Assembly: GCA_010909165.1 (NCBI GenBank)
Contig: VJWM01000019.1
Span: forward strand, 744,001-808,000
Direction of reading: 5' to 3'
Length of the DNA stretch: 64,000 nucleotides
From: Anthoceros angustus
Taxonomy: Eukaryota; Plantae; Anthocerotophyta
The position numbers and the translations under genes are program-made. A model generated the notes under the pieces. The model did not search any database. It saw nothing but the letters and a program-made list of their open reading frames with translations, and was not told the origin of the DNA. Numbering within the stretch: position 1 is the first letter of the stretch; each line of letters begins with the position of its first letter. Of this stretch, positions 4,406 through 64,000 are shown piece by piece.

Positions 4406-4428
4406 TTACAAGAAATTGTGTGAACGCA

Positions 4429-28300: not shown

Positions 28301-29474
28301 TCTCACAGAGCTTAACCTGTAGTCTTTCAACCGATGGCTCTCTCCCGACCGTCAGCCAGAAAGTCATGCCAGCAAAATAATTGTGAACTCTAGGATTGTT
28401 CTTAACCCTCTGAGCAAGCAACGTCTTCCCAATCCCTCCCTTGCCCCATATGCCCACCCACTGCGACCCATTTTCACCTGACAGCAAGAATCCCAGCAGA
28501 CGCTTCATGGCATCATCTGTTCCGAAGACGAAATCTGGCTCCGGCTCCAGGTCCTGACCAGAAGCAAATGAGTGTCTGCCGGTTTCAAAACTTCTGGCAG
28601 AGCTCTTTCTTACAGAGCCTGCACTCACCCCTTCACTCACGAGACTTAGCTCTTGTATGCCATCATTCCTGCCTGGTGACGGACTAAAGCTCCTTCGTTG
28701 AGAGGAGATGGAATCCCTTGAAAGTTGCCTCCCCGATATCCTCCTACCCTCAACCTGCAAGGCGCTTGTCAGGCTATCCGTTCTGCTTTTGATCTCGTTG
28801 AAAACAGTTTCTTGGTTCATCTGGCCTCCTTGCAAACAGCACTCCCTGGTTATGACGGAAAGCTCCAAACGACTCAGCTGCATCGACAGCTCTTGCATAG
28901 ACACCTCCATTGCCCCCAGCTTCGCCAGGGTTGCCAAGGGAGCGTGTTCTCCAGCTAGCTCCTTTATCCGCATGGTTATATTCAGAATTGACTTCGACAT
29001 CTTGTAGCTGGCCAGCATGTTGAGGTTCCGCGTCTCCTGGTTGCATTCGTGTAGCAGCTCCACGGCTTCCTGCAGCAATTCCTCCAACTGTGCCAGCCAG
29101 TCCATCACAGCCTGGGACGACGCTGCCCATTGGAAGGGAAGCAATGAGGCCAAACGTAGAGTGCAGTCCACGCGTCAGTGCCGACTCTCCCACAATACCA
29201 GTCCACCCCACAGCAGCACAAACTTGAGCACGCACTTCAGAGCAGGGTAGCACATACTGCGGCCATGAAGAGAAGAATCCGAGCCCGATGAATAGCCACG
29301 GGACGAGCCTGCCTCCATGTCCGACACCAGCGGCTTGATGCTCTGTAGCAGCACCTCCAGATTCTTCCGATACTTGGGGCAATTCTTAGCCAGCTTCACG
29401 GTCTTTATTGCCTGATCCAACAGCTTTGCCACTGCATATCCGACCACACCGGCCACAAATCCTGGATCGCCCAT
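25332..29474 (-). CDS. NLR immune receptor: RPW8/CC-like N-terminal domain, NB-ARC and LRR; multi-exon, apparently intact
   Basis: Start MGDPGFVAGVVGYAVAKLL. P-loop GIWGKGGIGKT; kinase-2 FLLVLDDVW; RNBS-B GSRILVTTRN; RNBS-C SWKLFCQHAF; CKGLPLAL; RNBS-D CFLYFAAFPED; MHD-type IHDVLRD. LxxLxLxx repeats run to the stop at 25332. GT-AG junctions join the ORF pieces checked. Confidence 0.93.
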
Positions 29475-29879
29475 CGCCCCCAATGGATGCAAACATCCTT
29501 CAGCATACACCCATCCAGCTCAGGTTGTCCGATCATGGACCTGCACCTCGCATTTGCATCTTATGCTCCTGCTGATCCCCATCCGCAGGCTCCCGTTCGG
29601 AACCAGCGGACGTCCTTTTGGGCCCAGTGCGAGGCCGACAGATTCTGGTTTGTCCCTTCGACCATCCACCCGTCGTCACGCGTGTTCGTCGGAAAGTGTC
29701 GGCATTGGAAGACAGAATCCGTCCGTCGCTGCCCATCTGAACAAACGGGGGACGTTGATTCCCGTACAAGCTCGTTTCGTATTTATCTACGCTATCATCC
29801 GTAATCCCAATGCCACAGCCTGCTACGGCATGCATGAGGTTGGTGGATCGAGTCGAGAATCGCTCCTGTTTACAATCAA
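29475..29879. promoter_or_regulatory. Candidate bidirectional promoter between the NLR and PPR genes
   Basis: Divergent start codons about 400 nt apart. Inferred from geometry only. Confidence 0.45.
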
Positions 29880-32800
29880 ATGCTCAGCGATGGGCTGGGG
29901 GATCTTGCATCCATAGGCTCAGTGCGAGCTCCTGCGATGGCTGTTGTGGGCGTTTCAGTTGTTTTCACGCTTGAAAGAAAGGCAGGCTGTTCAGGAGGAT
30001 ATTCGTCTCAATCTGTCAGTGGAGGTCGTCGGCACAGGCAGTTTCAGGAGGTCCTCTGGTTGAATAACTTCTGCAAGCCAGCTCGGGTTGATGTTCAGCT
30101 TGCTGGGTTGGATGTGGAGATGGGTCATGATCCTGACCCTCTCAGGCCTGCAGGTTACGATAAGGGTGTGACGGCTGAAAGTGTGCAAGAGCTGTGTCAT
30201 GACGGACAGCTGAGGGAGGCTGTTGAGGCTTTGGGAGTTTTGGTGCGGACGGAGTGTTTTGTTTCCAGAGCCTTGTTGTACGCTGTTTTGAAGACTTGTG
30301 TGTTGAAGAAGGATCTTGTTCTGGGTCGGCGCGTGCATGCATTCACGGTGAGGAAGGGGTACCAGTCAGACACGTTCCTGGGCAACCACATCGTGCGGAT
30401 GTATGCTGCCCATGGCAGGTTGCAAGACGCGATGGATGTGTTTCAAAGGGTTGCCAAACCTGATGCATTCACGTGGTCTGCCATTATATCTGCGCATGTT
30501 AAACATGGACAGGAGAAGCAGGCTATAGAATTGTATCGTTGGATGCGGAGGTCGAGTGTGAAGCTAGACGGTCATGTGATAGTGGCAGCTCTGCAGGCTT
30601 GTGCAAAGGCGTCGGACTTGGAAACTGGGCAAGAGGTGCATGCTGATGTGTTGGCCGGCGGGGTTGAGCGTGACTTATTTGTCTGTAATGGCTTGGTGAA
30701 CATGTATGCAAAGTGTGGCAGCTTAGAAGATGCTCAGAGAGTGTTCGATGGACTTGATCACAAAGATGTGGTCACGTGGACTGCTCTAATTGCTGGGTAT
30801 TCCAAGAAGGGCATGGGGCAGGACGCGCTTTGTCTGTACAGTGCTATGCAGGAAGAAGGCATTGCTGTACCCAATTCTGCGACGTTTGCATGTCTCCTGC
30901 AGGCGTGTGCAAGTATGGGCACCCCCGGTTTGGAGATGGGGAAGCAGTTTCATGAGGAAATTAGAGAGCGAGGATATCAAAACGATGTCTTTGTGGCCAG
31001 CAGTTTGGTGAACATGTATGCAAAGTGTGGCAGCCTGGAAGATGCTCAGAGGGTTTTCGATGGACTTGGCCAGAAAGAGGTTGTGACTTGGACTGCTCTG
31101 ATTGCAGGTTATTCTCAGCAGGGCAGGGGACAAGAAGCCATTCATCTTTACAGTGTCATGCAAGAAGAGGGCATGGCTGTACCCAATTCAGTGACATTTG
31201 TGTGTCTACTGCAGGCGTGTGCAACTGTGGGCACCCCAGCATTGGAGATGGGGAAGCAGCTTCATGGGCAAATAAGAGACCAAGGACGTCAAGCAGATGT
31301 GTTTGTGGCTAGTAGTTTGGTGAACATGTATGCAAAATGTGGCAGCTTAGAAGATGCTCAGAAAGTGTTTGATGGACTTGGTCAGAAGGATGATGTGACA
31401 TGGACTGCTCTAATCGCAGGGTATTCCCAGCAGGGCATGGGACAGGAAGCTCTTCGTCTCTACAGTGCTATGCAAGAAGAAAATATCGCTGTACCCAATT
31501 CTGTGACATTTGTGTGCCTCCTGCAGGCATGCGCAAGTGTGGGCACCACAGCGTTGGAGATGGGGAAGCAGCTTCATGCGCAAATTGGAGAACATGGACA
31601 TCAAGCTAATTCGTTTTTGGCCAACAGTTTGGTGAACATGTATGCAAAGTGTGGCAGCTTGGAAGATGCTCAGAGAGTGTTTGATGGACTTGGTAAAAAG
31701 GATGTAGTCACGTGGAATGTCATGATAGCAGGATATTCCCAGCGGGGGATGGGCCTCGAAGCCCTTCATCTCTACAGTGCTATGCAAGAAGAAGGTATAA
31801 CGGTACCTGATTCTGTTTCCTTTGTGTCCTTGCTGCAGGCTTGTGCGAGTGTGGGCAATGCGGCTTTGGAGAAGGGAAAGCAGCTTCATGCGCGAATTAG
31901 AGAACAAGGACACGAAGCTGATGTGTTTGTGGCCAACAGTTTGGTAAACATGTATGCAAAGTGTGGCAGCCTAGAATGTGCTCAGCAAGTGTTTGACAGA
32001 CTTGATGACAAGGATGTGGTTACGTGGACTGCTCTAATTGCAGGGTATTCCCAGCAGAGCATGGGGCAGGAAGCCCTCCGTCTTTACAAGGTTATGCAAG
32101 AAGGTGGGATTACTGTACCCAATTCCATGACATTTTCATGCCTGCTGCAGGCATGTGCAAGTGTGGGCACCACAGCACTGGAGATGGGGAAACAGCTCCA
32201 TGTGCAAATTAGAGAACAAGGACATGAAGCTGATGTGTTTACAGCCAGCAGTTTGGTAAACATGTATGCAAAGTGTGGCAGCTTGGAAGATGCTCAGAGT
32301 GTGTTTGATGGACTTGGTGAAAAAGATCTGGTGCTTTGGACTACTCTAATTGCGGGGTATTCCCAGCAGGGGATGGGCCAGGAAGCCCTTCATCTCCACA
32401 GTCTCATGCAAGATGAGGGCATGGTTGTACCCAATTCTGTGACATTTGTTTGCCTTCTGCAGGCATGTTCAATTGTGGGCACCCGGGCTTTAGAGAAGGG
32501 GAAGCAGCTTCATACAGAGATCAGTGAACGTGGACTTCAAGCTCATGTATTTGTAGCCAGCAGTTTGGTGAACATGTATGCCAAGTGTGGAAGCTTAGAA
32601 GATGCTCGGATTGTGTTTGACGGACTTGATCAAAAGGATGTGGTAACGTGGAATGCCATGATAGCAGGATATTCTCAGCAGGGCATGGGGCAGGAAGCCC
32701 TTGGTCTCTATGCTTCTATGCATGAAGGCGGCATCACTGTACCCGATTCTGTGACTTTTGTGACCCTCCTGCAGGCCTGTGCAAGTGTGGGCCTCCCAGC

Positions 32801-35251
32801 TCTGGAAAATGGAAAGTTCCTTCATTCGCAAATTAGAGAACTAGGATATGAATCTGATGTTTTTGTCAGCAGCAGCTTGGTGAACATGTACGCCAAGTGT
32901 GGCAGCTTAGAAGATGCTCAGAGAGTGTTTGACGGCCTCAGTGAAAAGGGCGTGGTGACATGGAACGCCCTGATAGCAGGGTACTCACATCAGGGCATGG
33001 GCCAGGAAGCCCTTCATCTCTACAGTTCTATGCAAGAAGATGGCATAGCTGTACTCGATTCTGTGACATTTGTGTGCCTCCTGCAGGCGTGTGCAAGTGT
33101 GGCAGCCCAGCTTTGGAGAAGGGAAGCAGCTTCATACAGAGATCAGTGAACGTGGACTTCAAGCTCATGTATTTGTAGCCAGCAGTTTGGTGAACATGTA
33201 TGCCAAGTGTGGAAGCTTAGAAGATGCTCGGATTGTGTTTGACGGACTTGATCAAAAGGATGTGGTAACGTGGAATGCCATGATAGCAGGATATTCTCAG
33301 CAGGGCATGGGGCAGGAAGCCCTTGGTCTCTATGCTTCTATGCATGAAGGCGGCATCACTGTACCCGATTCTGTGACTTTTGTGACCCTCCTGCAGGCCT
33401 GTGCAAGTGTGGGCCTCCCAGCTCTGGAAAATGGAAAGTTCCTTCATTCGCAAATTAGAGAACTAGGATATGAATCTGATGTTTTTGTCAGCAGCAGCTT
33501 GGTGAACATGTACGCCAAGTGTGGCAGCCTTAAAGATGCTCAGAGAGTGTTTGACGGCCTCAGTGAAAAGGGCGTGGTGACATGGAACGCCCTGATAGCA
33601 GGGTACTCACATCAGGGCATGGGCCAGGAAGCCCTTCATCTCTACAGTTCTATGCAAGAAGATGGCATAGCTGTACTCGATTCTGTGACATTTGTGTGCC
33701 TCCTGCAGGCGTGTGCAAGTGTGGGCAGCCCAGCTTTGGAGAAGGGTAAGCAATTTCATGCCCAGATAAGAGAGGAAGGACATGAAGCGGATTCCTTTGT
33801 ATCCTGTAGTTTAGTGAACATGTATGCAAAGTGTGGCAGCTTGGAACATGCCCAGAGACTGTTTGCTGAACTTGGTCAAAAGGATGTGGTGACTATGAAC
33901 GCCATGATAGCAGGATATGCCCAGCAGGGCATGCTGCAAAAAGCCCTTAGTCTTTACAGTGCTATGCAAGACGAGGGCATCGTTGTGCCTGATTCCGTGA
34001 CATTTGTGTGCCTCCTGCAGGCATGTGCAAGTGTGGGCACCCAAGCTTTGGAGAAAGGAAAACAGCTTCACGCACGAATTAGAGAACAAGGACATGAAGC
34101 TGATCTGCTTGTAGGCAGCAGTTTGGTGAACATGTATGCAAAGTGTGGCAGCTTGGAAGACGCACAGAGAGCATTCGACAGACTTGGTGAAAAGAGTGTG
34201 GTAACATGGAACAGCATGATAGCAGGGTATTCTCAGCAGGGCATGGGACAGGAAGCCCTTCGTCTGTACAATTCTATGCAAGAAGAGGGCAGGGCTGTAC
34301 CCGATTCCGTGACATTTTTGTGCCTCCTGCAGGCATGTGCTAATGTGGCAGCTTTGCATCTGGGAAGGCAGCTGCATGTACAGATCGAAGAACTAGGACT
34401 AGAAGCTGATGTATTTCTAGCGCACAGTTTGATAAACATGTATGGGAAGTCAGGAAGCATGGTTGATGCACAGAGGGTGTTTGACGCGTTGTATGAAAGA
34501 GATGTTGTCGCCTGGAATGCCCTCATTGCAGGCTATACCTGTCAAGGAAACAGCGAAGTGGTCTTCGACCTGGTCCACAGAATGGAAGACGACGGCATAC
34601 AGCCAGTCAGTGTCACATTTCTCAGTGTCTTGACAGTATGCAGCCATGCAGGTCTCTTGAATAAGGGGCGTGAATACTTCGATTCTATGAGCAGACAGTA
34701 TGGCATCACTCCCACGGCGCACCACATCACTTGCATGGTGGATCTTCTGGGTCGTGCGGGACAAGTGGAGGAGGCACTAGCTGTGGTAAGGACTATGCCT
34801 GTACTGCCTGACGCCGCTGTTTGGCACACTCTTCTGAGTGCTTGTCGAAAGTGGAGCAATGTGGAGGTGGGACGCCATGCTTTTGACCAAGTAGTGAAGC
34901 TAGACAAGAAAAATGCTGCAGCATATGTGTTGATGGCAAACATTTACACTGGTGCCCAAATGCGAGAGCAGGCACAGACAATACAGGCAAGGAGAGTAAG
35001 ACTCAGGGCATCGAAGCAGCCCGGTCAGAGCTGGTGGACAGACAAGGACGGACTGGTGCATAGTTTTTTGGTTGGTGACGAGGAATATCCCCAGAATCCG
35101 GCAAGGCGGAAACAGGTAAAGCTTAAAACCTAAGACAAAAGGGTATGTACCACATCTGACCTCGCCGCCGGACATAGCTGATGGTAGAAAGGGCGATGGT
35201 TTGTGTGGGCGGAGCGAGAAGCTGGCTATCGGATATCCCTTCAAGCTGTGA
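29880..35251 (+). CDS. Very long intronless PLS-class PPR protein (14 repeat triplets) with E/E+ domain, WW-type box and degenerate DYW; frameshifts near 33110 and 35120
   Basis: Repeating 104-aa triplet (VFVASSLVNMYAKCGSLEDA / VVTW[TN]A[LM]IAGYSQQG / SVTFVCLLQAC); E domain AAVWHTLLSACRKW; KQPGQSWWTDKDGLVHSFLVGD. The N-terminus could be an organellar transit peptide. Confidence 0.95.
32490..33733 (+). repeat. Near-identical 622-bp tandem duplication within the PPR gene
   Basis: Identical antisense ORFs at 32595-32831 and 33217-33453 (offset 622 = 624 - 2). Two single-G losses at the junction (~33110-33122). Confidence 0.92.
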
Positions 35252-48194: not shown

Positions 48195-48275
48195 TAGCCT
48201 TGGGGATTCGAACCCAAGAATTGCTGCTGGCATAACAAAACAATGCTTAACTACTAAACCCCAATTCTTGGGTCC
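48195..48275 (-). other. tRNA-like or SINE-head-like sequence with pol III A- and B-box-like motifs
   Basis: Minus strand GGGGTTTAGTAGTTAAGC...CTTGGGTTCGAATCCCCAAGG has a B-box/T-arm hairpin. No convincing anticodon arm. Confidence 0.3.
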
Positions 48276-48830
48276 CAAGAAACGAACCCTGCAACGTAAA
48301 GTAGTAGGTAGAGTATATCACCTCCTGATATAAGAATGTACATACTAGCGTCGGCTTTGCTTCTTCTAAAGCCTCGTTTTACTAGCTTAACATGTATGGT
48401 TACATTCCATTCCTTTCCAGATTGTTTCAAACCATAAATACATTTAATAAGTTTGCATACCCAGTCTTCCTTGCCTTGAACCTTATAACCCTCGAGCTGT
48501 CTCATATAGATTTCTTCTTTCAGACGGCCATATAGATAAGCTGTCTTTGCGTCCATCATATGGAGGTGGAAATCATGTTGTGCAGTTAAAGCGAAAATCA
48601 TTCGAAGGGAAGCAAACTTGGCTACTAGAGCATATGTGGCATAAGGTAAATAATCTAGTCCTGGAATCTGAGTAAATCCTCTCGGCACTAGTCGCGCTTT
48701 ATAGCGTTCAATAGAGCCATCTCCCTTGTGTTTAATTTTGAAAACCCATTTGCTGGTGACAATTTTTCTCTTTTTGGGTGGCCTAACTGTTTCCCATTTA
48801 GAATTCTTAACCTCATGGACTGCCATTAAT
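48254..48830 (-). mobile_element. Second Ty1/copia RT fragment, truncated at the YV(DD) motif
   Basis: IVTSKWVFKIKHKGDGSIERYKARLVPRGFTQIPGLDY; MDAKTAYLYG; IYGLKQSGKEWN; YLLLYV, then loss of homology. Confidence 0.93.
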
Positions 48831-49320
48831 AAAATAAATAATTAGTACTTCCTATACATCTTAGCCTGGGATAGTTACTCAAGTGGTTTGGAAACAGTCG
48901 AAGGAGGTGTGTATCAACGAGAAGGACTCTTTGAAAGCGCAGGTGGTTTCTTTGAATGCTCGTCGGCTGAAGACCAAAACTGAGGAGGACTGAACGAAGA
49001 CTCAAGGGCTTTGGGCGAGAACGATAGCTTCGATAAACAGGAACTGGAGCGAATTCAAAATTTGGTCATCGTGATGGATTCGGAGTCCGCTCTAGCACCC
49101 GATAAGTCACAAGTTAGCCATAGAGAGTAGGTTTACAGGATTGTAGGCACCTAGATGTGCTTCTTCTCTGTGTTCGTAATAACTTTTGGACCCGTTGCAG
49201 TGAGGCAATTGATGATTTCATTTTCCCCTCTTCCTCAAAAACGAAGCGAAGGGGCTGGCTGGCCGGCGCCTTCGCTTGGATTTGTTGTCGTTGTGTGTTG
49301 GAAACGGGTTTTCATGATAA

Positions 49321-49413: not shown

Positions 49414-50179
49414 TGTCGCGCCAAAGCCGCATAGCAGGCATGGACGCACACGCTATGCCATCAAGGTGATTGTCAAAAGTTTTCAACCACTTTTTGCGGA
49501 CTCCTTGACCCACACCCTTGACTACATGAATTGTCACTACATCCGCACCGTAATGCTTGCAAATTGCAAAAATCCACTCTATTTGGAATGGTTCTCCTCT
49601 TATGCACACACCACTACTTGAATCACACACAAGATACATGAAAACCGCTTGGGATCTCTATGGCTGTTCTCTTGAATCAGACATCAACAATCCGCGCTCA
49701 ATGACGGATTGTTGGATTTTTGTAGCCTACACCGCCGCCGATCTTAATCACCGGCCCGAATTCCGAAGAGTCGTGAGCACGCCCGCACACGCCGGAAGAT
49801 CTTCGCCGCTGAGCCTTAATTACGCTTGTCCGTATTCTGAGCATATGGCTCATGCAGCCATGATACCATCCTATCTCTACACACATGCTATGCATCATGC
49901 CATCACATTCCCAGTATACGCATGCAGTCATGGTTCATGCATCACCTCTCCTCACAAACTTATACTGGACACACACATGTCATCACACCCCAGACCCTAC
50001 CTGCCTATCTCTACCTCTATATGCCATGACAGCTGTCGCGCCACAACCGCATGGACGCACACGCTATGCCATCAAGGTGATTGTCAAAAGTTTTCAACCA
50101 CTTGTGTGCGGACTCCGTGACCCACACCCTTGACTACATGAATTGTCACTACAGCCGCACCGTAACGCTTGCAAATGGC
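49414..50179 (-). repeat. 3' LTR-like block of copy 1 with ~150-bp direct repeats at both ends (49414-49568, 50034-50179)
   Basis: Both repeats start TGTCGCGCCA and end in AA(T)TGC/AATGGC. The adjacent CCCCCCTGCC reads as a G-rich PPT-like tract on the minus strand. Confidence 0.7.
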
Positions 50180-50246
50180 CCCCCTGCCAAAGTTGGGCTG
50201 CGTCGGAAAGAAACCGGTCACGTATCTGGAAGCACCACTTTGGCAT

Positions 50247-51317
50247 TTATATGCTGTAGAGTCGTCGGTAGAACCTCCGGAACATGCCGTCTCTGAGCTG
50301 TGGTTCGGACAGTTTGTCATGCTCCATTCTTCCTGTGGCTAACAACGCGGCCACACGCCGATCTTCTGGGTCAAAATACTCATCCACCTGCGCTTTGCCC
50401 AACCGTGCGCACTCCTTTGCTCGATGGCGGGCCATGAGCTCCTCTTCTTCATCACTGTCCAGTTCAGTCTTCACTCTGGGAAGCTGTGGACCGTTCAAAC
50501 CATTCACATAATACTGTTTTTCGACGCACTGAGCCCTGAGAAAATCCCCCACATTGTCACTGAGCAGATACCAAGACTCCAAAGTGGCCTCATCCCATTC
50601 CAACACACTTGTGCGTAGGCAAGCAAACACCCTATAAAAAGCTCGTGGATAACCAATGGCAAAACGCCCCGCTTTCTCTCTATGCAAATGACTGAGCCAC
50701 ACTTTCAAACTTCGCAAGTCAGCTGGCTTCTCCTTGTGTCTATACATCAGGAATCCTTCTTTAGGCCAATGATCAAACACCTGATGCATAAACAGATGAT
50801 GTTCCAACTTTCGGAATGCCCCCTCACAGTAACTAATCCATACGAAGCTTTGTCTGTTCATGCCCCTGCCTGCCAACTCAAAAAGATCCCGATGATCATA
50901 AGGAAAACTTTCGATGTTGCAGGTCTCATGATGTGATTCTACATACAGCAAAAATGCTTGTAACTCCAGAAATGTCTCGGGTCGTTCGGGCTTGCCCGGC
51001 TGATATTTCCTCACCAAAGGCGTCTTCCATTTGTCTTCCCATGGTCTATCTGGAAACTGTGGAATACTAGTGTTCATCCGGCAAAAACACGATTCGCAAG
51101 TGTGGTCCGCTTCCATATCCATGTTAGCAATCTGTGTTAGGCCCACGGTTAACCCCCCACTTGATGCCCACACAATTGGAGGACGGGTGCCTTCAGTATT
51201 TGTCGAACCACCAAATGAACTGATCTGATTCTCTGGAGATGACCTGTGCCCTGTTGCTGACTTTGCCAGGCAAGTGTCAAGCTTGCCAATCAACACATGC
51301 TGTCCTGATTTTACCAA
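50247..51317 (-). CDS. ORF-X: 356-aa accessory protein of unknown family, 3' of pol
   Basis: Uninterrupted ORF. A clearly homologous ORF sits at the same position in copy 2 (e.g. EKQYYVNGLNGPQ..RVKTELDSDEEEELMARHRA). Confidence 0.75.
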   Translation of the reverse strand: MVKSGQHVLIGKLDTCLAKSATGHRSSPENQISSFGGSTNTEGTRPPIVWASSGGLTVGLTQIANMDMEADHTCESCFCRMNTSIPQFPDRPWEDKWKTPLVRKYQPGKPERPETFLELQAFLLYVESHHETCNIESFPYDHRDLFELAGRGMNRQSFVWISYCEGAFRKLEHHLFMHQVFDHWPKEGFLMYRHKEKPADLRSLKVWLSHLHREKAGRFAIGYPRAFYRVFACLRTSVLEWDEATLESWYLLSDNVGDFLRAQCVEKQYYVNGLNGPQLPRVKTELDSDEEEELMARHRAKECARLGKAQVDEYFDPEDRRVAALLATGRMEHDKLSEPQLRDGMFRRFYRRLYSI

Positions 51318-51909: not shown

Positions 51910-52296
51910 TTATTGAAGTTCTTTCTGCACACCCACACCGTGAGTGTGCATTTCACTTAGCCCCCCAGCTTCCTTTCGCCCTAGCCTTTCCGTCGTACAC
52001 TTGTGACAAAACCACTCCCCTTCTGGAATTGCCTTCAGTGGTGGCCAAAGACAAAACACATGATGCCCTTGGTTGCATTGATCACATAATAACATCAGTT
52101 CAGGATCAGTGATTTGACCACAGTGTTCGCAGGGCAGGTCAATAGGTGGCTTCCATGCCTGGGGTTGTGTGCGCGTGTCAAGATTCGGCAAGTGGCATGG
52201 GGCCAGATGTCGCATGTGCCCCTTGCATCGGCGCCCGTCTTGCCCTTCCAACTCAATGACCCCTTGCTCACCAACGTTCACTACTCGCAAAATCAA
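51910..52296 (-). CDS. Integrase C-terminal extension with PHD finger
   Basis: CEHCGQITDPELMLLCDQCNQGHHVFCLWPPLKAIPEGEWFCHKC fits the C4HC3 PHD pattern. Confidence 0.92.
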   Translation of the reverse strand: MILRVVNVGEQGVIELEGQDGRRCKGHMRHLAPCHLPNLDTRTQPQAWKPPIDLPCEHCGQITDPELMLLCDQCNQGHHVFCLWPPLKAIPEGEWFCHKCTTERLGRKEAGGLSEMHTHGVGVQKELQ

Positions 52297-53300
52297 TCAT
52301 CCCGTGCTCACGTCCAAAGTGCCAGAAGGACAATGTTGAAGATATACGAAGTCAACTACTTCGAATTTCCTAGCCTTTGGCTTCCATGATCCTCCTTGCG
52401 TGAATGCGTACCTCAGCTGGTCTCGGTGTTGTGCGATAGCCAGATTATCCATTGCCATGGGTATCACTCGTTGTAACAACTTGGCCCTGTTTCGTAACTC
52501 TGAGAAGCATTCATTCACATTTTGTGTCCAATTCACTGGTTTGGAATACGTATCCGCTACTATGTTGGGCAGCACAGCATTCCTGCCAAACATGATATAA
52601 TAAGGACTGAAGTTGCCTAGGGCTGCCTGTACACTGATTATGTAGCCCAAGGCAACATTAGCAACTCATCCCAACAATTAGGCTCGACCTCCGTGCAGTA
52701 CTTGCGAAGGGCATCCTTGAAAGTTTGCACCAGCCTTTCGGCTAAACCATCCGCCTGAGGATGGTCCCGTGATGTGCGTCTGTGATCTATCAAACTCCGA
52801 TCTAACAACGCTTGGAACTCACCTCTGAATTCGTTTCCTTGATCTGTCAGCACCTCTGCACAGCTTCCATACCTGCTCAAAACACTACTGTAGGAAAGCC
52901 CGGGCCATGAATTGTGATGTCCTGACTAGAAGGAATGCCAATTCCACCCACTTGGAGAAATGTTCTATCATAAGCATACAATGCTTGTTGCCTTGCTTGG
53001 TCAATGGTAGCTCGGCATGAGGTCAACGGACCATCGAAAGAACAATCCCCGAATGGGCAGCGAATGCAGCACCACATCCTGGCTGTTGAACCTTGCCTTA
53101 ACTACATCACAAGCAGCACACTTCGCCACCACTCGCTCGACATTGGCATACATTCCAGACCAAAAATATGCATTCTTCAGCATGTGATGTGTCCTTTTCA
53201 CACCGAAATGCCCAAGTGTCATGTGCACCTTACTCACTATCTGTTCTCATTCCTCTATGGGAGGCACCTCTTTACTCATTCCATGATCTGTCACAAATAA
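52297..53300 (-). pseudogene. Gypsy integrase (HHCC zinc finger and catalytic core), frameshifted
   Basis: HMTLGHFGVKRT...YFWSGMYANVERVVAKCAAC; WSVDL; VLTDQGNEF; HPQADGLAERLVQTFK. Confidence 0.93.
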
Positions 53301-54850
53301 CTTACCATCCCTCCATGTGTAGCGCATGACTTTCCGTCGTAGTTTCTGAATTGCTGCAGCATCCAGTCCAGCTACCTGTCCCTCCTTCAATAGCTGCATA
53401 GCATGTTCATATTTCCATATGTCTCGTCCTCCCTCATTGAGTTGTTTTCCTCCTTCCTGCTGTGTGGCCATGAGTGCCATATACATGCTCCGCATGTAAC
53501 GAGCATGCCCGAAATCCTGTCGCGCACCAGTCGTATCCCTGTCATCAGATATCGGGTTTCTGCTAAGTCCATCAGCATTGTGGTGCACTTTGCCTGCCCG
53601 ATGCACTATATGCATATCGTACTCTGACAGCAGCAACGCCCACCTCGCAAGCTTGCCATCAACTTCATATTCGTCATTAGCCAGTGCAACGGCTGGTGGT
53701 CAGTCACGAGCTGAAAGCTCCTGCCAAACAAATAAATTCTGAAGTGTATGACCGCCCACACAGCAGCTAGTACGATGAGTAGGTTAGATTCCGTGGAGTT
53801 GTTCGACCTACTTGCATACGCAATCACTCTTTCTCTTCCTTCCCCATCTACCTGTGCAAGGACGGCCCCGATTCCAGTTGCACTCCAGTCGGTATACAGG
53901 ATGAACGGTTTGTCAAAATCAGGCCGCTTAAGCATAGGCCTTTCTGACAATTGGGCCTTTAATTCCTGCCAAGCGTGTTCATGTTTCTGCTCCCACTGCC
54001 ACTGTACTCCCTTCTTCAACAAGTCATACAATACCTTGCAAGTGCTGCTCATGTCTCTTATGAACCGGCGATAGTAGTTGATGAGTCCTAAGAATGCCCT
54101 CAACGCAGCGACATCCCGTGGTCTAGCGTAAGATTGACAGCCTGCACCTTTGCTAGTTGTGGCAACACACCTCCTAGGACAAGATATTCTATCTCTTTGT
54201 AGGCAAACTTGCACTTCTTTGGATGTGCCTTCAGTCCCGAACTGGACAATCTTTGCAGTAATGTTTCGAGGTGTTGAATGTGCTCCTCCAAACTGTCGCT
54301 GAACACCAAAATATCATCAATGTAACACCTTACGAATGGCAGCCCTTGCAACTCCAAGTCCGCCACTCGCTGGAAATAAATGGAAGCGTTTTTCAACCCG
54401 AATGGCATCATCTCCCATTCCCACAACTGCTCTTTGCCCCAGAAGGCCGTCTTGCACTTATCTTCTTCCTCGATGATGATTTGATTGAAACCAGAGCGAA
54501 AATCCAACGTCGTGAAATATTTGGCTTTGCCAATCGCATCAAAGATTTCATCTGGGGTAGGCATGGGATATCGTTCCATAGACATTACCTCATTCAGTGC
54601 TCGATAATCTCCACATATCCGTCTGTCCTTCCATTCGCCATTTTCATCTTTCTTTAGTGGGAGGACCGTGGCCGCAACATATTGCGAGCTTGATTTCCGA
54701 ATTAGTCCAGCTGCAAGTTCCTTGCACCATTTATCCACAATGTCCCATTCTGTTGGGCTCAACTTGTGCCGTCTTCGGAAGATCGGCTCGTTGGTGGTGG
54801 TAACAATTTTGAACTTGATGCGTTCATAACGTCCCAGCTCTTGCTAGCTG
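53300..54850 (-). pseudogene. Gypsy reverse transcriptase and RNase H
   Basis: RICGDYRALN; YFTTLDFRSGFNQI; KTAF; MPFGLKNA; [10 protein letters not shown]; [16 protein letters not shown]; VIAYASR; LVTDHQPL. Confidence 0.95.
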
Positions 54851-55099
54851 AATGCAAAGGTACCCCGATTCCTTTCCAGCATATCCCGGATCCTTCGCTG
54901 ATCCTCATTGTCCAGATCTTCACATATCTGCCATGTGTGAGTCGATTGCTCATTCGTGCTTTCCGTCGGTGGTGAAACCTGTTCTGCACTATTTGCAGCA
55001 TTAGTGTACTTGTCCTGACGGCTTGGAAACTCTTCTCCTTCATCCATCATCTGTATGTGGCCTTCCTTTCCTTTCTGACTTGCAGCCAGCTGTATGGCC

Positions 55100-56050
55100 A
55101 TTCCCACACTCACCAACCATTGTAAACAGGTCAGGTCAAACGCTTGTCCCAGAAGTTTGCATCTGTAAGCTTCCGACACACCTCGCGTGTAGGCTAGGTG
55201 CTGCTGTCGTCAAAGTCCATCGCTCGCTCCCGCTCTGCTATCGTGGGCTCCCCCACTTCCTCACCATTCATGTTCAACACCATGCCTGCACCACCTCGGC
55301 GAAAGGCATATGACTGTGCCGTACTGACCATTGTGGGCCATGCTCTTCTGGGCTCTCCCACAACATTGACAGGATAGTGCGGCAACTTATCCATCTTGTT
55401 CACCTGTTGCGATCGCCTGGCCTCATCAAGGATCTCATCCAAGCTCCGCTTGCTTGGTGTGGTCAAACTTGATCTGCCTGAGCATTTCCACACTTGCAAT
55501 GTTCGTCCAAAAACTGCGGACATGGTGAGTGTGTGATTGTGTTTGTACCGCGTCAATGATGAACTCATCTCCCAGCCAGCTTCTGAGCTTTTCATAGCTT
55601 TTTCTCACATGATCCCTTTTGTCAAAAGCTCCGCAAACATTCTCCAATAAGTACCAACATGCCGGATTGCACTGCTGCACTTCTCTCAGAATCCGTATTA
55701 CCTCCTCCGCCAGCTGCACACCGTTGCCTCGACCACGTCCAGCCTTGGAGAAGGTCTTGCACTCCCATCCTGCAATCATCATGTCAGCGGGCATCTTCGC
55801 CTCTGGTGTGACTTTCCACATCACATCGTGGCAGAGTCTGCAGTGCACAACCTTTCATGGCTTCCATGCTTAACAGTCTCGGATACATTTTTTGTAACTT
55901 GAGAATCCTAGATCTGGCCACCGCCCGAGTTTTTTCATTGATCTCTACACACGTATACTTCCGTATCCGAATCCCACATCGTAAGACGCACTCCAATCCG
56001 CTACTAATCCTTGAACACAATTCCATGAGATGAATTCCCTGTTCATGGGC
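55100..56050 (-). pseudogene. DNMT3-like C5 cytosine DNA methyltransferase domain within pol, between protease and RT; frameshifted
   Basis: Motifs in canonical order: I/II IHLMELCSRISSGLECVLRCGIRIRKYTCVEIN; IV DMMIAGWECKTFSKAG; VI WYLLENV; VIII FIIDAVQTQSHTHHVRSFWTNI; IX ERERAMDF; X RCKLLGQAFDLTCLQWL. Confidence 0.85.
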
Positions 56051-56345
56051 TCGCCATTGAATCACTTGGTTGTTGATCCGTAGATTCAGATCTCCTATGA
56101 CTGCTCGCTTGGGCAAGCTTCTTTCCGGACAGTTGCTGGTGACTCGCCACACCTGCATCTATTGCTGTCGAATACGCTCTCTCTCCAAAGCTTCCTTCAC
56201 GAGTGGTGTATAGATTACACGCATATCATTCGATGTTGTGCCTTCTTCCGACACCTCATTACGCGCCAGGTCCTGTGTCTCTTCCCACACCTCCTCTCTG
56301 TGAACACTTCCGGCCACGCAAGGCGTGAATGCCCAACATGCTTCT

Positions 56346-57115
56346 TCACCTTTCACCATGTCTTCTCATATCCAGAGGAATTCTGGCAACATGTGTGAAG
56401 TCTCCATCCCGCCACCTCGGCCTATAGAACGCCATAGAGTGCAGCGGATCCACCCCCATTGCTGGTCCATGTGTGGCATCTGCACCCAGCAACACATCGT
56501 AATTCCGTGCATCTGAAACTAAACAGTGTACTTCCACCACACATGCATCTGCTGTCCCCGGCTTATACTCTATTCGAATCGGATCACGAGTCATCCCCAT
56601 CACCTGTTCTTTGGTACCTGCAGATGTGGTAATCCGTACCTCACACGGCTTAAGCTTGTCTCCATATAGCTGGAGTGCCTCTTGCACTCGTGCCCCAAGC
56701 AGCACGGGATTTGCACCAGTGTCTACTAGCACACACTCCGGTGCAAAACCATTGACAGTGACCTCCCGTTCTTGATTCTTCGCTAAAGCTATGCCACCTT
56801 TCCCCCTGGCTGCTGGTTTTAAATGATCACCACGTAGGCAGACAAGCCCGGACACCATGTCCAATTCAGTGGCTTCCTTCTTAATCCAAGCCCGCATTGC
56901 TTGCTTGAATGGTTGTGCCCGAATTCCCAGGTCACGCAAACTTACCATGGGTGTATCCATGGCCTTTTCTAACAGGATCTCTGCATTTGGAGCCACCTTA
57001 TCCTAATGTGCTGTGACGTCCTCGTCCTGGATCTGTCTAAAGGACTTGGGCAATTTCAACTGATTCCTATCCTCACCCGTCTTCACTTTCACACCTTCGC
57101 CGAAATCAATGCCTC
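56346..57115 (-). pseudogene. Retroviral-type aspartic protease and upstream pol sequence
   Basis: CVLVDTGANPVLLG (DTG catalytic motif) and YDVLLGAD. Coding-like sequence continues up to the copy-2 junction at 57116. Confidence 0.9.
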
Positions 57116-57806
57116 TGTCACGCTACTGGCTGCATAGCGTTCAAGACACACGGAAAAATTATGTGGAGAGCGTTCACAATAACCCGCACCCAAACAAACC
57201 AACACACGCAATGCTCATCTTAAAATTTATTCAAAGCGCCAATGGCAAAATTTCATTTCGGCTTGGATGTAGGATCCAACTCGCTCACCCACACTTCAGC
57301 TAAGAGTGCAAGGAAACTTCGTTGCTACCGGGGATCCGTATGGCTGCTCCTAGAACAAACATCGCAATCCGCGCTCCGGCTTGCCATCTTATCACCTAAG
57401 TGCTTGGCGCGCCTTCATGAACCACGGGTGCCCTCGGCGGCCTTGACACCCTCCCACGAAAAGGCGGGCGATGCCTCCGTGGGCAATAATTACGCGCAAT
57501 TACGGGTGATCATGATTTTGACACCCGCTACCCACCGCGATTTGTGGCCATCCTCACAACCTCGACGCATGTCATTGCATGCACATCCAACATGCATGCC
57601 CACCATGCATGCCCATAAGCGAACATACATACCACATTCATGCACATACATGCACCCATACCCTTCATACCATTTCATCGGTGGCATGGCGGTCGCTTCT
57701 GTACATAGCGTTCAAGACACGGAAAATTATGTGGAGGCGTTCACAATAACCCGCAAACAAACCAACACCGCAATGCTCATCTTAAGGCATTCAAAGCGCC
57801 AATGGC
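57116..57806 (-). repeat. 3' LTR-like block of copy 2 with terminal direct repeats (57116-57247, ~57691-57806)
   Basis: CATAGCGTTCAAGACAC...CAAAGCGCCAATGGC occurs twice. The spacer is homologous to the copy-1 spacer (GGGATC..TATGGCTG..C...ACATC.CAATCCGCGCTC). Confidence 0.7.
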
Positions 57807-57854
57807 CCCCAAAGTAGCGGCTGCCATTGCTGTTGAAGTAACTTGGGCATCATA

Positions 57855-58800
57855 TCCCATAAAACCTTCTATAAACGGAAACATACTATCACGAAGTTGG
57901 GAGAAGGGCATTCTACTCTGCGTCACAGCCAGCGCCACCCGCCTCTCTTGAGTTAGTATTCGTCCACTTGTGCCTTCCCCAGCCTCTGCCGTTCTCTGGC
58001 TCGATGGCGAGCCATAAGTTCTTCTTCCTCATCACTGTCAAGCTCCGTCTTGACTCTGGCCATCTGTGGCCCATTCAAGCCATTCACGTAGTACTGCTTT
58101 TCGATGCACTGGGTGCGTAAATAATCACCGACGTTGTGGTTGAGCAAGTACCAGCACTCGGTGGTAGGCTCATCCCATTCTAGAATTCCTGTCTGCAAGC
58201 AAGCAAACAGGCGGTAAAAAGCTCTGGGGTAGCCTATGGCGTCGTCCTGCTTTCTCCCGATGTAAATGACTAAGCCACACTTTCAAAGCTGCGCCGTCTG
58301 CGGGTTTCTCCTGCTTATACACGAAACCCTTCCTTGGGCGTGATCAAACACGATGCATAAAGAGGTGATGCTCCAATTTGCGAAATGCCCTTCACGAGCT
58401 AGTCCACACGAGCGTTTGCCTATTCATTCCCTCCACGCAAGTTCAAACAAATCCTTGTGGTCATATGGAAAATTTTGACCTTGCAAGTCTCATGATGAGA
58501 CTCCACATACAAAATGCCTGTAATTCGGGAATGTCTCGGCCGTTACGGTTTGCCGGTGATATTTGCGAACGAGTCGCCACTTATCTTCCCATGGCGCTCG
58601 AAATTGGGGCACACTATGATGCATCCTGCGGAAGCAGGTCTTACATGTGTGATCTGCTTCCAGATCCATTGTCACAGCTCTACACCACACCACAGTCTCC
58701 TGCCGTTAGTCGCGCTGTCACAATTCCCACCCGCTCTGCCAGCATGCAGGTGAAGACTTCGTCAGTGGCTTTTTCTACGGCATCGCCAACCGTTGGTGTC
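57855..58800 (-). pseudogene. ORF-X homologue in copy 2, frameshifted
   Basis: MDLEADHTCKTCFRRMHHSVPQF..PWEDKW..VRKY; LEWDEPTTECWYLLNHNVGDYLRTQCIEKQYYVNGLNGPQ. Confidence 0.8.
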
Positions 58801-61800
58801 GGCCAACCTACAGTCACCCGGGAACAACCGTGCTCACAAGGGCGCGGTTGTCGTGTAGCAGAGGCTCTCAATTCCACCAGGGTTGTGAGCTTGTCTTCCC
58901 CTCCGAATCAGAAGCGCGACCTCAATCCACAGATGACCAACAAATCACCTTGATGCAGGGATGCCACGCTTGCGATCCGTTCCTCATGATGCCAGATGCT
59001 TCAGTCGCGAGCTGTTGTTGTGCCCACGGGCGTCCTGATGACCTCCTATCGCCAACGCCGCCCACCTTGTGCTGTTGGCCCAATTCGCCGCGATGCTTAG
59101 TTTGCGCCCCCTGTCCATCACGTGTGCCTCACCAGTGCCTTAGTGCGGAACCTCTCGTGGCTATTTCTACACTGATAACCTAACCCTTTGCCTGAACAAG
59201 TATGACCCCGTTTCTGCGGTAGGGCTTCAAACACTCATATCTGTTGTATTGCCATCATCCAAAAACATCTTTGTTACTACCCACTCATGCTCCTTGCGCT
59301 GGCTTGAGCGGGCTCTTTGCGAATAGACCCTATTGGGTCGTGGTTGGCGAACTTGCAACATTCATGAGGCACACGGCCCCTGACCACTTGATTTGCTTGT
59401 GGATGAGCACACGATCCATTCCATTCACCGGAATGGTTACGAGTGGCGGTCGCAAGCAAAAAACGTGATACCCTCCGTTGCATTTGTCACAAAGCAACAT
59501 CAGATCGATGCGTGACCGCAGAACTCACAAGGCAGATCAATCGGTGGTTTCCATGCCTGCGGTTGCGTTCTTGTGTCGAGATTGGGCAAGTGGCACGGTG
59601 CCAGGTGTCGCATGTGCTCCTTGCACCGACGCCCATCTTGCCCTTCCAACTCAATCACCCCTTGCTCACCGACGTGGACTACTCGCAGATCAAGCGTCCG
59701 GTGCTCACATCTAAAGTAGTTGAGGGTCGATCTGCGAGTAAAGCAATCGCGCCTCAAACTTCCTTGCTTTGGGTTTCCGATCCTCCACGGTGAATGCATA
59801 TCGAAGTTGGTCCCGATGTTGGGCTATAGCAAGATTATCCATGGCCATTGGCATCACTTAAACGACTTTGCTCTTGCTTGCAATTCGACAAACATCCCAT
59901 AGGATCCTGTCCACGGGCTTGGAGTAAGTGCTACTATGTTTGGCATGATTGCATTTCGCCAAACATGATGTAGTAGGGGTTACAAGTAGCTTGCTTGATT
60001 CGGTATCCTAGAGCTACATAAGGCAATAGCTCGTCCCGGCAGCGGGCTCTATCTCCATACAATATTGCGAGAGTCCTTGAAGGTGGACTAACGCTCCGCC
60101 AACCCATCGACTGGGTGATCCGGGAGGTTAAATGCGATCTATCGGACTTGATCCAGTGCTTGAAACTCTCCTCGAAACTCATTGCCTTGGTCGTCCTCGG
60201 CAAGTATCTGCGAGAACACATTGCAAAACGCCTGCGGTATATTGCGAACCGATTGGCGGAAGGCCAACTCCACCCACCAAATGTTCGATCATCAACATAC
60301 AATGTCATTGCCTGCACGGTATGGTAGTTCGGCATTAGATCAAGACCATCGAAGAAAAGTCCCGATGGGTAGCGAATGCAACACCATATCTTGGTGGAGA
60401 ATCGGCCTTCTTTGCATCACAGCGGCACATTTGGCCACCACCTTTTCAACGCTCGCATACATGCGACCAAAAGTACGCATTTTCAACATATGATGAGTCC
60501 GCTTCACTCCAAAGTGGCCAAGCGTGACATGTACCTTAGTCACCAATTGCCTCCTCTCTCCTATGGGTGGTACTTCCTTGAGCACTCCACGATCCGTGAC
60601 CCACACCTTCGTTTTCATAAGTGTGTGACGATTTTCCGTTGTAGTTTTGCTGAGGCATCCATACCGGGGACTGTCCATCCGTAGCGGTATGTAAGCTTGC
60701 TCATTCTTCCATATGTCTCTTCCTCCCTCGGTTGCCTTCCATCTTCACATTACCTGTGACATGAGGCCATGTAATAGCGGGCATGCTTTGAATGAGTTTA
60801 AAGTCTGCCTTGCTCCGATCACATCTCCTTTGTCGCACATTGGGTTTCTCGAGACCGTCGGCATTGAGATGCACTTTACCGCTCGGTGCACTGTCGCATG
60901 TCATATTCGGCGATAAAAGCGCCCATCGGGCAAGTTTTCCACTCGTTTTCATATTTGTCATCAGCCGGTGAAGGGCGATGATGCATGTTTCAAGTTAAGC
61001 TCCAAACAAATACACTCGAAATGTAAAACCGCCAAGCGCGCGGGCATTCCCTTCATACGATGAGTAGTTTGCTTCGCAGCATTGTTGGACCTACTTGCAT
61101 GTCGACAACTCGCTCCTTTCCTTCTTCATGCATGCCAAGACTCCAAGACCGCACTCGGTCAGTATATAAGACAAATGGCTTATCAAAATCGAGCCTTTTG
61201 AGCATTGGCCTTCCGCTATTGGTTCTTCAACTCCACCTGCTTTGTTCATGCTTGTCCCCATCGCCAAGGCACTCCCTTCTTGAGCAATTCATACAGTACC
61301 TTGCATATGCTGCTCATGTTTCGGACAAACCGGCGGTAGTAATTGACAAGTCCCAGAAATGCCCTTAAGGCGGCAATGTCTCTAGGCCGGGGCATGAGAT
61401 CAATTGCCCGCACCTTGGCCAGCTGAGGCAACACCCCACCTGGAACTATCTTATGCCCCAGGTACTCTATCTCCTTGTAAGCAAACTTGCATTTCTTTGG
61501 GTGTGCCTTCAATCCTGATTTGGCCAATCTTTGCAGCAAAATCTCAAGGTGTTGGAGATGTTCTTCCAGGCTGTCACTGAACACTAAGATGTCGTCGACG
61601 TAACATCTTACAAGCAGCGATCCACAGAACTCCAAATCGACCACCGCTGAAAATAAATGGATGCTTTTCAAACCAAATGGCATTGTTTCCCACTCCACAG
61701 TGGTCCTTACCCCAAAGCGGTCTTGCACTTGTCTCTTTCTTGATGACTATTTGATTGAATCGACGGAAATCCAATGTAGTGAAATACTTGGCACCAATGG

Positions 61801-62324
61801 CATCAAAGATTTCATCCGGCGTTGGCATGGGATATCGCTCCATGGGTGTCACCTCATTCAAAGCACGATAGTCTCCACACATCCTTCTGTCGTTCCATTC
61901 GCCATTCTCATCCTTTTTTAACGGCAACCACGGTTGCGCGATATGCGGTGGACTTCGATTAGTCCAGCGCCGACTCCTTGCATCTCCTATCCACAATGTC
62001 CCTCCATGGGACTCACTGCCTCGAATCTTGGTTCATTGGTGGTAGTGGTGATCTTGAATTTGATCACGATCCTTGCATTGACTGTGCGAAGGTGTGCGGT
62101 TCTGCGGCATATCCGAATCTTACATTGATCGACTTCTTCTAACTCTTCGCATATCTGCCACTCATGCGTTGAGTTTACGCTGTGGGTGTTCTCTCTTGTC
62201 GTCACAGTCCCTGCAGTGTTCGCCGTATTATCTCCTTTGTGTCGCTGTATTGGAAACTCGCCTTCTTCAAGCACTGATAGACGCATATCACCTCCCGCCT
62301 TGCACATATCTATTTGTGTGGCCA

Positions 62325-63165
62325 GACCCACGTTCAACAGCCATTGCAGGCAGGTCAGATCAAACGCTTGACCCAGCAGCTTGCATCGATATGTTTCAGA
62401 AATGCCCCGCGTGATGGTCCCGTCCGCATCAAACCCCATGGCCCTTTCGCGCTCCATCACTGTGGGCTCACCTACCTCATTTCCAAGCGAGATCCACCAC
62501 GGTGCCGTCCCCGCCTCTCCGAAAGGCATAAGATTGGGCAGTCCTTACGAGTGTGGGCCAGGCCCTTCTCGGCTTCCCAACCTTATTTACGGGAAATCGT
62601 GGAGGTTTGTCCATCTTCCGCACCGGCTGTGAGCGTCTGCCCTTTTCTAAGATGTCATCCACATATCGTTTCTCTGGTTTGGTCAACTCACGGTGTTGCC
62701 TGAGAACCTCTACACCGGTCACGTTTGTCCAAAAACTTCGCACCCGGTGGGCGTATGAGCCCGTTTGCGCAGCATCAATAATGAATTCCTCTCCTATCCA
62801 ACTTCTGAGCTGCTCGTAGCCTCCTCACATGTTCACGCTTATCGAATGCTCCGCACATTCTCCGTACGTACGGCAAGTGGGATTGATTGTACTTCCTTGA
62901 ATCCGATTATATGACCACTTCCACCGTCACCTTTCCACAACCGGCCGAAGCGTCACGCATTCCCATCCTGGCGGCATATCGACCGGGCACGCGCTTCGGT
63001 GTCGTTTCCCTACCAATCTGACGTCGTGGGGTAACCTGCTCTGACATCCCTTCACTGCCTCCATGCTTAGTAGTCCGGGATACGCCCTTTGCATCCTGAT
63101 AATCCTGGATTTGGCTACTGCACGTGTCTTCTCGTCCACTTCAACACACGTGTATTGTTGAATAA
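62325..63165 (-). pseudogene. DNMT3-like methyltransferase domain of copy 2, lacking motif I (truncated at ~63165)
   Basis: YTCVEVDEKTRAVAKSRI; GWEC; EEFIIDAAQTGSYAHRVRSFWTNV; ERERAMGF; RCKLLGQAFDLTCLQWLL. Confidence 0.85.
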
Positions 63166-64000
63166 CGAAGGGTTATTTAATGTTTATAACCTACATTAGG
63201 GTTAAGTGTTTTAGGGTTACGAAAACACATTGTATATAAGACGCTTTGATTGCGATTAAATGTAGTAGTTGTTGTGTTCTTGCTTTCGTGTATTGTTTTA
63301 GTGTCTTGCACACATGCTCGTAAATTAGCATGGTATCGAGTGTCTGTAGTCACATGGCGATTGTAGTCTAGATTCAATGCAATTGGCATTGTCTCACGCA
63401 TCCTAGCACAAGTACACTACAAGAAGGGCCGCACACCGATCATCTTTGGTGTAAGAACCGGGATGACACGGAGGAGGAGGTCTTTGGGTCCTCACGGCTT
63501 TAGGAGGAACAACAATCCTGCCCAAAGCCAAAGATCAGAAACGGGACATCAAGCTTCTTCAAGTGTCTTCCCACCACTTCGATGCACGGATGTTGAGTAC
63601 CATCGTGCTGAAGGGGCCAACCTCCCAACTCCTCGCGTGAATCCTGCACAAGAATTCAGAGAACGGGATGCAGCAATCAGATCTCGTGCTGATAGTGGCG
63701 AACTTCATCGGCAACTAATCTACATTAGAATTGCAGTATTGGAAGAACGCTGAGTCGATCAATTCTTCAGAAATCTTATACGAGTGACCGGGATGAATGT
63801 TGCTCGGCACCATTTACGATTTGCTCCAAGCCGACCAGCGTTCTAGCATCCCTGATGCCCACACTTGAGAGTTTGGGCTCCCTACCTTGCTGATGTTACC
63901 AGATCTGAAACGTCACAATCTTCAGAGGAAGGTGGTAACGAAAGGGCGCAGCTTTGCTTCCTGCCTGTTTTCTTCTTGACACGGAGGATGGTTGCAGCCC

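Follow-up and report, generated by a model that had tools for sequence, protein, structure and literature searches.

Why a retrotransposon in what appears to be land-plant DNA should carry a cytosine methyltransferase inside pol, how the domain came to be there and what it would have done are the questions that this locus raises. In the window, by which we mean the whole stretch of 64,000 nucleotides that was analysed, two nested Ty3/gypsy-type copies lie on the minus strand, each with a DNMT3-like C5 methyltransferase (DNMT) domain in pol; the pol order is protease (PR)-DNMT-RT-RNase H-integrase-PHD. With moderate confidence, we read the locus as two nested, dead copies in a land plant, probably a hornwort, with the DNMT3-like domain between protease and RT; in their active ancestors, this domain likely methylated freshly made cDNA of the element ahead of its integration.

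Two broken copies of the element are nested in the window

The positions of the element copies and of the main neighboring gene are collected in Table 1. Between the protease and the RT of copy 1 there is a gap of about 1.6 kb, and it is in this gap that the C5 methyltransferase motifs are found, in unpermuted order. Copy 1 pol is interrupted by several in-frame stops and frameshifts, with the DNMT domain split into four pieces over three frames. Copy 2 spans approximately 63180-57116, shares 68% DNA identity with copy 1 over 3965 columns and shows 61 one-base and 28 two-base gaps. It is truncated near 63200, inside the DNMT domain and upstream of motif II, by unrelated sequence (63200-64000). 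Both copies are dead, and neither carries out any methylation at present.

The 3' end of copy 2, a GACA at 57116, lies directly against the upstream region of copy 1, suggesting a nested insertion of copy 2 into copy 1. The same 3' end cuts off the copy 1 remnant at 56766..57115; as the gag of relatives gave no match to this remnant, we label it from its position as probably the end of gag. Small integrase fragments related to the same element family were also observed at 2800-3100 and 7680-7830; next to them are long inverted repeats and a tandem array with a 69-nt unit (3077-7704).

Table 1. Features of the two element copies and of the PPR gene in the window.
Feature	Position	Strand	Evidence
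PLS-class PPR gene, long, intron-free	29838..35250	+	PPR families; E_motif 48.1 bits; PGQSWWTD box; short DYW-like tail
Copy 1, remnant upstream of protease	56766..57115	-	Frame continuous with protease except one stop
Copy 1, aspartyl protease	56478..56765	-	DTG 56723-56715; PF13650 28.1 bits, PF13975 27.6 bits
Copy 1, DNMT piece 1, motifs I-II, glycine loop degraded	55850..56077	-	34% to P0001; 55 bits, independent profile
Copy 1, DNMT piece 2, motifs IV (GWEC), VI (ENV), VIII	55477..55836	-	PF00145 25.2 bits; 40% to P0001
Copy 1, DNMT piece 3, target-recognition region and motif IX	55197..55493	-	40% to P0001; 75 bits
Copy 1, DNMT piece 4, motif X	55081..55182	-	In frame with linker and RT except one stop
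Copy 1, RT and RNase H	53648..54843	-	YIDD 54324-54313; PF00078 104.9 bits, PF17919 97.1 bits
Copy 1, integrase, with stops and frameshifts	52297..53423	-	tblastn to P0001, P0004, P0006
Copy 1, PHD finger, end of pol	51997..52131	-	PF00628 40 bits
Copy 1, ORF2, 288 aa, open	50247..51113	-	Open frame; conserved with copy 2
Copy 1, 3' terminal block	49414..50184	-	Purine tract 50184-50179, B1 to 50034, A2 from 50031, B2 49567-49414
Copy 2, DNMT domain, motif I missing	62332..63178	-	GWEC 62968-62957
Copy 2, RT (YVDD 61602-61591), RNase H, integrase, PHD; many small deletions	59430..62331	-	
Copy 2, broken ORF2 homologue	57957..58669	-	72% DNA identity to 50377-51122
Copy 2, 3' terminal block	57116..57810	-	B1 57806-57694, B2 57246-57116

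The domain between protease and RT is a C5 methyltransferase closest to DNMT3

An earlier, sequence-only reading had reported C5 methyltransferase motifs, spread across frameshifts, between a DTG protease and a YIDD RT, and had proposed a PF00145 search as a check. This search bore the report out, as one of the four copy 1 pieces scored above the curated cut-off (25.2 bits against 22, E 1.4e-5). An independent DNMT profile, built from five relatives and holding no window sequence, gave 55, 93 and 75 bits for copy 1 pieces and 37-99 bits for copy 2 pieces; its best score elsewhere in the window was 1.4 bits and its best in 30 trinucleotide shuffles 5.7 bits. The NCBIfam dcm model reached only 20.5 bits, far under its full-length cut-off of 100.65.

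The motifs of copy 1 are IAGWEC (55776-55759, with the Cys at 55761-55759), LLENV (55650-55636), VRSFWTN (55521-55501), ERERAM (55235-55218) and LLGQAF (55155-55138), all on the minus strand. The catalytic Cys of motif IV and the ENV are retained where they had been placed before (about 55759-55761 and 55636-55644), but the motif set as a whole is less intact than the sequence-only reading had it: motif I of copy 1 is degraded to ELCSRISSG, in place of the LFGG, PFGG or LCGG of most relatives, and its motif VIII reads H-x-R, with one Arg missing. Copy 2 keeps the Cys and the R-x-R of motif VIII, and its motif I is missing.

A profile of the family matched 455 clusters at E up to 1e-30. Of the best 150 representatives, 148 have the Cys of motif IV (the other 2 being gaps), 140 have EN and 147 have R-x-R, counts that are biased by the query itself having carried those motifs. 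The residue preceding the Cys is Glu in 86 of these representatives, Pro in 52 and another residue in 10, hence other than Pro in 96 of 148. Both window copies had been noted to have EC in place of the usual PC, and this is correct (GWEC in copy 1 and at 62968-62957 in copy 2); since 86 of the 150 relatives share it, EC is the commonest form in the family and not damage.

To which class of DNMT the domain belongs was approached by sequence profile and by fold. Searched against solved structures, a family profile made of five relatives plus the window pieces found DNMT3A best (E 1.1e-21), before DRM-type enzymes (3e-9 to 2e-7) and HhaI (1.5e-7), and the order of motifs I-X is unpermuted, unlike that of DRM. 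An AlphaFold model (pLDDT 96.8) of the domain of P0001, an intact GWEC relative and the closest by RT, aligned best with DNMT3B (Z 28.7, rmsd 2.7, 278 residues aligned), in agreement with Foldseek; DNMT3A (Z 27.4), M.MpeI (25.7, just 3 Z units below DNMT3B) and HhaI (22.8) came next. This fold evidence comes from the domain of a relative and concerns the family, not the broken window protein. Together, profile and predicted fold support the earlier DNMT3-like call, in the sense that, among DNMT classes, the domain appears closest to DNMT3. No PWWP or ADD domain was seen with the window-type DNMT, longer proteins searched for homologues of the motif IV-VIII piece yielded 0 of 55 candidates, and a viral-contig scan with the DNMT piece found nothing.

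The termini are split direct repeats with integrase-type ends

The previous assignment to Ty3/gypsy stands for the order of PR, RT, RNase H and integrase, but not for ordinary LTRs. Both 3' ends in the window have the arrangement B-A-B, and only the GACA right end of each copy is visible, the 5' ends lying outside the window data. B1 and B2 are 95% identical over 131 nt in copy 1 and 85% identical over 126 columns in copy 2. Copy 1 has the junction GACA-GC-TGTCATG at 50037-50025, the same as in the related locus L001, and a GACA end at 49414; the copy 2 junction is degenerate, with the B pair and the end motif present.

Split direct repeats (A...B-A-B) were clear in 6 of 26 related loci examined (L026, L033, L036, L040, L068 and L075), while L077 resembled them in layout but had no end motifs, and in several of the 26 one pair alone was visible. 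A junction pattern of GACA, two bases and TGTCAT, chosen after junctions had been inspected, occurred together with a partner repeat at 11 of the 80 loci. The termini of relatives are TGTC...GACA, and a script detected a 4-bp target duplication in five of the seven loci with both ends located; L040 apparently has one too, by eye. The element at L036:5633-14957 appears to be complete, as all four repeats are there along with a target duplication of 4 bp. An ordinary two-LTR structure was rejected on the basis of the split repeats in relatives and at the window 3' ends. The combination of split repeats and integrase-type ends raises the question of how such elements rebuild their termini.

Two further classes were considered and rejected. 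DIRS/PAT tyrosine-recombinase elements do not agree with the presence of a protease and a DDE-type integrase, and ORF2 has no recombinase match. Troyka elements, described from animals only in the accessible text of their report, have CG...CG LTR ends and 3-bp duplications (PMC12440569), in contrast to the plant host here and to the TGTC...GACA ends and 4-bp duplications of relatives.

Unbroken relatives share the domain order of the window

An RT search returned 38 proteins, five of them with PF00145, including the top match P0001 and two Closterium proteins. The DNMT profile search returned 51, among them Closterium and Pyramimonas proteins and P0089 from Calypogeia fissa, which joins a protease to the DNMT on a 67-Mb contig. 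A second protein of this liverwort, P0266, is unbroken and shows PR-DNMT-RT in the order of the window, as do the unbroken Closterium protein P0011 and P0170. None of the matches that carry names bears the name Klebsormidium.

The position of the domain varies. In the best 150 representatives, the DNMT follows RT or RNase H in 69 and precedes RT in 8; of the rest, 33 have other element domains only and 40 the DNMT alone. In P0156, a protein named Scenedesmus pol, the DNMT follows RNase H. This protein belongs to a sister group, with P0088, P0064, P0020 and other Scenedesmus- and Pyramimonas-named proteins, in which the domain lies between RNase H and integrase with its catalytic residues kept. 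In three close RT relatives (P0004, P0040 and P0022) with an integrase and mostly a PHD, the DNMT was undetected in the protein, which may possibly reflect losses or truncated gene calls.

In a scan of metagenomes, 263 of 600 candidates held up under a tighter alignment, and 80 loci were kept. Matches to window domains were present for the protease in 55 of these, for RT in 66 and for PHD in 27, in the window's order as far as each contig reaches. A PPR-E-DYW gene adjoins the L036 element, and that locus is therefore from a land plant.

The DNMT and RT trees are congruent

We compared DNMT and RT trees for 32 elements with both domains, counting splits with FastTree support of at least 0.95 as strong. 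The RT tree recovered all 11 strong DNMT splits, the DNMT tree recovered 14 of the 15 strong RT splits, and no strong splits conflicted. For 20 of the 32 elements, 14 with the domain before RT were separated from 6 with it after RNase H with a support of 100/100. Within the before-RT group, which also holds Closterium and Calypogeia elements, the window copies make up a separate long branch. In the best tree this branch is placed with a Calypogeia/L036 clade (support 72/90), and a grouping with Closterium was not rejected (p-AU 0.27), whereas a grouping with two after-RNase H elements was (p-AU 1.5e-9).

The congruence indicates a single gain of the domain, which was then passed on together with RT, and speaks against a capture in this host, which the sequence-only reading had offered as one of two origins. 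The gain would have occurred in an old green-plant element, with the window family as one deep branch of the before-RT clade, as judged from trees that hold neither a cellular DNMT3 outgroup nor a Klebsormidium sequence. The presence of Calypogeia members in two different lineages suits an old diversification. The other proposed origin, survival from streptophyte algae, is compatible with these results but is not established by them, because deep branches are unsettled (31-75% support in the first RT and DNMT trees) and horizontal transfer is open. Entry into land plants may have been vertical or horizontal.

A broader scenario can be formulated, which we put forward tentatively and regard as somewhat doubtful. 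It would involve a green-plant-wide clade of elements with split repeats and integrase-type ends, comprising hundreds of protein clusters, in which a DNMT3-like enzyme was already functional before the origin of land plants and has been carried since. The domain would have moved between two pol positions (after RNase H in chlorophyte-named and before RT in streptophyte-named members), the elements would have passed vertically into hornworts, liverworts and mosses with copies inserting pre-methylated, and the window lineage would have added ORF2.

The DNMT domain evolved under purifying selection

For the one pair of sequences available, copy 1 against copy 2, we counted synonymous (pS) and nonsynonymous (pN) differences in windows of at least 40% identity. 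The values were pS 0.82 and pN 0.16 for DNMT (197 codons), 0.80 and 0.13 for RT plus RNase H (275 codons), 0.79 and 0.16 for integrase plus PHD (255 codons), and 0.94 and 0.16 for ORF2 (149 codons). Synonymous sites are thus saturated while nonsynonymous differences are low; because columns were pre-filtered for similarity, pN is biased low, equally for all domains. While the two subfamilies diverged, the DNMT was under purifying selection, with a constraint about equal to that on the core enzymes.

Depletion of CpG had been suggested as a mark of self-methylation, and no extra depletion was seen in either copy: the observed/expected ratio of CpG was 0.65 for copy 1 and 0.91 for copy 2, while the window as a whole gave 0.71 and the PPR gene 0.44. 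In six related loci the ratio ranges from 0.33 to 0.58, without a matched DNMT-free control.

An additional ORF is conserved between the two copies

Both copies have an extra ORF, ORF2, between PHD and B1. ORF2 had no match in the 80 related loci, of which 27 reach PHD, and a single weak match (36 bits) in a set of 262 proteins. Searches of Pfam, NCBIfam and PDB gave no convincing match, a viral-contig scan found nothing, and a single-sequence model had a pLDDT of 44. Leads from the ESM Atlas to DUF5066 and to SMI1/KNR4 (SUKH-type) were weak (scores 0.89-0.91, 128-141 shared features) and were not accepted. The protein sequence is conserved between the copies, and what is new here is a separate deep lineage that carries this extra ORF.

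The element resembles described DNMT-bearing retrotransposons

The sequence-only reading had linked the locus to the elements of de Mendoza et al. 2018, and this link is sound for KnitGypsy-Dnmt3 of Klebsormidium nitens, a Gypsy element with a Dnmt3-related domain, whose figure legend gives DIRS-like repeats with Gypsy domains (PMC5890265). Both elements have an intron-free Dnmt3-related domain in Gypsy Pol, purifying selection, DIRS-like repeats and a streptophyte host; the window element differs by its land-plant host and by a PHD finger and a 288-aa ORF, neither of which is mentioned for KnitGypsy in the accessible text (PMC5890265). The window element therefore fits the KnitGypsy-Dnmt3 type, a likeness drawn from description and not from sequence comparison, as no named match was a Klebsormidium sequence.

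Other systems are more distant. SymbioDIRS-Dnmt3 and SymbioLINE-Dnmt of Symbiodinium share with the window a retrotransposon-encoded C5 methyltransferase, but are dinoflagellate tyrosine-recombinase or LINE elements, in contrast to its protease and DDE integrase (PMC5890265). EpiLTRs of Cymbomonas and Euglena are, like the window element, LTR-type with a cytosine methyltransferase and a chromatin-reader domain; their DNMT is however sister to DNMT4 and is accompanied by a chromodomain and an adenine methylase, and its authors consider it distinct from streptophyte Gypsy-DNMT3 (bioRxiv 10.64898/2026.05.21.726589). Cellular DNMT3A/3B and moss DNMT3 (PMC10952607) have the same unpermuted motif order and the closest solved fold; unlike them, the window-family domain is seen without PWWP or ADD, has GWEC or GWPC at motif IV and sits in a polyprotein.

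In its accessible text, the 2018 paper describes DNMT-bearing Gypsy elements from one charophyte alga, as a lineage-specific acquisition (PMC5890265), and a 2026 preprint from the same group mentions "streptophytes (Gypsy-DNMT3)" with land plants not named in the part available (bioRxiv 10.64898/2026.05.21.726589). In the literature that we searched, with subscription journals thinly covered, no report of a DNMT-bearing retrotransposon from a land plant was found. The locus is thus a range extension of a described element type to land plants, with the extra conserved ORF as a new feature. The family is large and old, and occurs in chlorophytes, a zygnematophyte, a liverwort and this land plant. 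Should the enzyme prove active, bryophytes that can be transformed would harbor transposons that methylate themselves, so that the proposal of self-methylation by de Mendoza et al. could be tested in a plant, and transposon copies could inflate the number of DNMT3 genes counted in bryophyte genomes.

Methylation of new cDNA is the likeliest role of the domain

We infer that the likeliest role of the domain is methylation of the element's own cDNA, because of its position in pol, its conserved catalytic residues and the de novo CG methylation shown by SymbioDIRS-Dnmt3 in yeast (PMC5890265). Gag-Pol would be packaged and then processed by the protease; inside the particle, the methyltransferase would act on the cDNA once double-stranded, probably at CG in the manner of the dinoflagellate retro-Dnmt3; insertion of the methylated cDNA would fall to the integrase, while the PHD finger would read histone tails at the target site, and the new copy would arrive resembling methylated host DNA. 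Pre-methylation, which the sequence-only reading had proposed for the element, can be maintained for active ancestors but not for these two dead copies. Counting against this explanation are the KnitGypsy-Dnmt3 domain, which gave no methylation in yeast (PMC5890265), the lack of extra CpG depletion and the frequency of residues other than Pro before the Cys.

The same conserved catalytic residues would serve an active methyltransferase whose target is the new insertion and the flanking host chromatin, reached after integration through an integrase-PHD complex, and not free cDNA. The PHD after the integrase, in the window and in 27 of 80 loci, and the DNMT after RT or RNase H, next to the integrase, in 69 of the best 150 representatives agree with such a target. 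In the window clade, however, the DNMT is joined to RT and not to the integrase, and the accessible text of the 2018 paper presents the Klebsormidium methylome as plant-like despite such elements (PMC5890265), so that we hold this possibility to be unlikely. It is less probable still that the domain was kept for a non-methylating or RNA-directed role, binding or shielding cDNA or RNA, and not for DNA 5mC. The usual WEC at motif IV and the lack of extra CpG depletion would be consistent with this, as would the KnitGypsy-Dnmt3 domain, for which no methylation was seen in yeast; yet the authors call that result inconclusive, and human DNMT3B was inactive there too (PMC5890265). At least 140 of the 150 representatives moreover keep the Cys, the Glu of motif VI and both Arg of motif VIII, residues for which a module that only binds would have no use.

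That the domain was captured independently in this host lineage, or that the join of DNMT to pol or the plant context is an assembly chimera, is very improbable and already largely refuted: the two copies share the DNMT-RT join at only 68% identity, the same join occurs in unbroken proteins on Calypogeia contigs of 15 and 67 Mb, and both the congruent trees and the rejected grouping with the two after-RNase H elements argue against it. The long separate branch of the window copies and the richness of copy 2 in small gaps, which could be sequencing error, are what can be said for it.

A PPR gene points to a land plant as the host

Whether the contig is from a land plant or an alga had been raised as a point that could decide the novelty of the locus, and a PLS-class PPR gene with an E motif in the window makes a land plant very probable; a hornwort is likely. 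The PGQSWWTD box and short DYW-like tail of the gene are probably of the hornwort WW type, although no statement tying this type of box to hornworts was found in the literature searched. The gene is built of 312-nt repeat units, and its tail is frame-shifted. According to the accessible text of a published survey, the PLS subfamily is confined to land plants and rare in liverworts, with the E+ subgroup enriched in hornworts (PMC13386178). Two of the PPR units (32499-32798 and 33121-33420), 622 nt apart and 100% identical, flank the single internal frameshift of the gene, and a recent duplication or an assembly error is therefore possible at this point.

Other genes were observed nearby. An NB-ARC gene (25332-29174, minus strand; PF00931 90.9 bits) has LRR-like exons and an N-terminal helical region, and a PIF/Harbinger-like pair at 9994-12601 consists of a DDE_Tnp_4 transposase on the plus strand facing a Myb/SANT-like gene on the minus strand. 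Two RT fragments on the minus strand (40793-41695 and 48254-48841) are 65% alike and, by eye, of Copia type.
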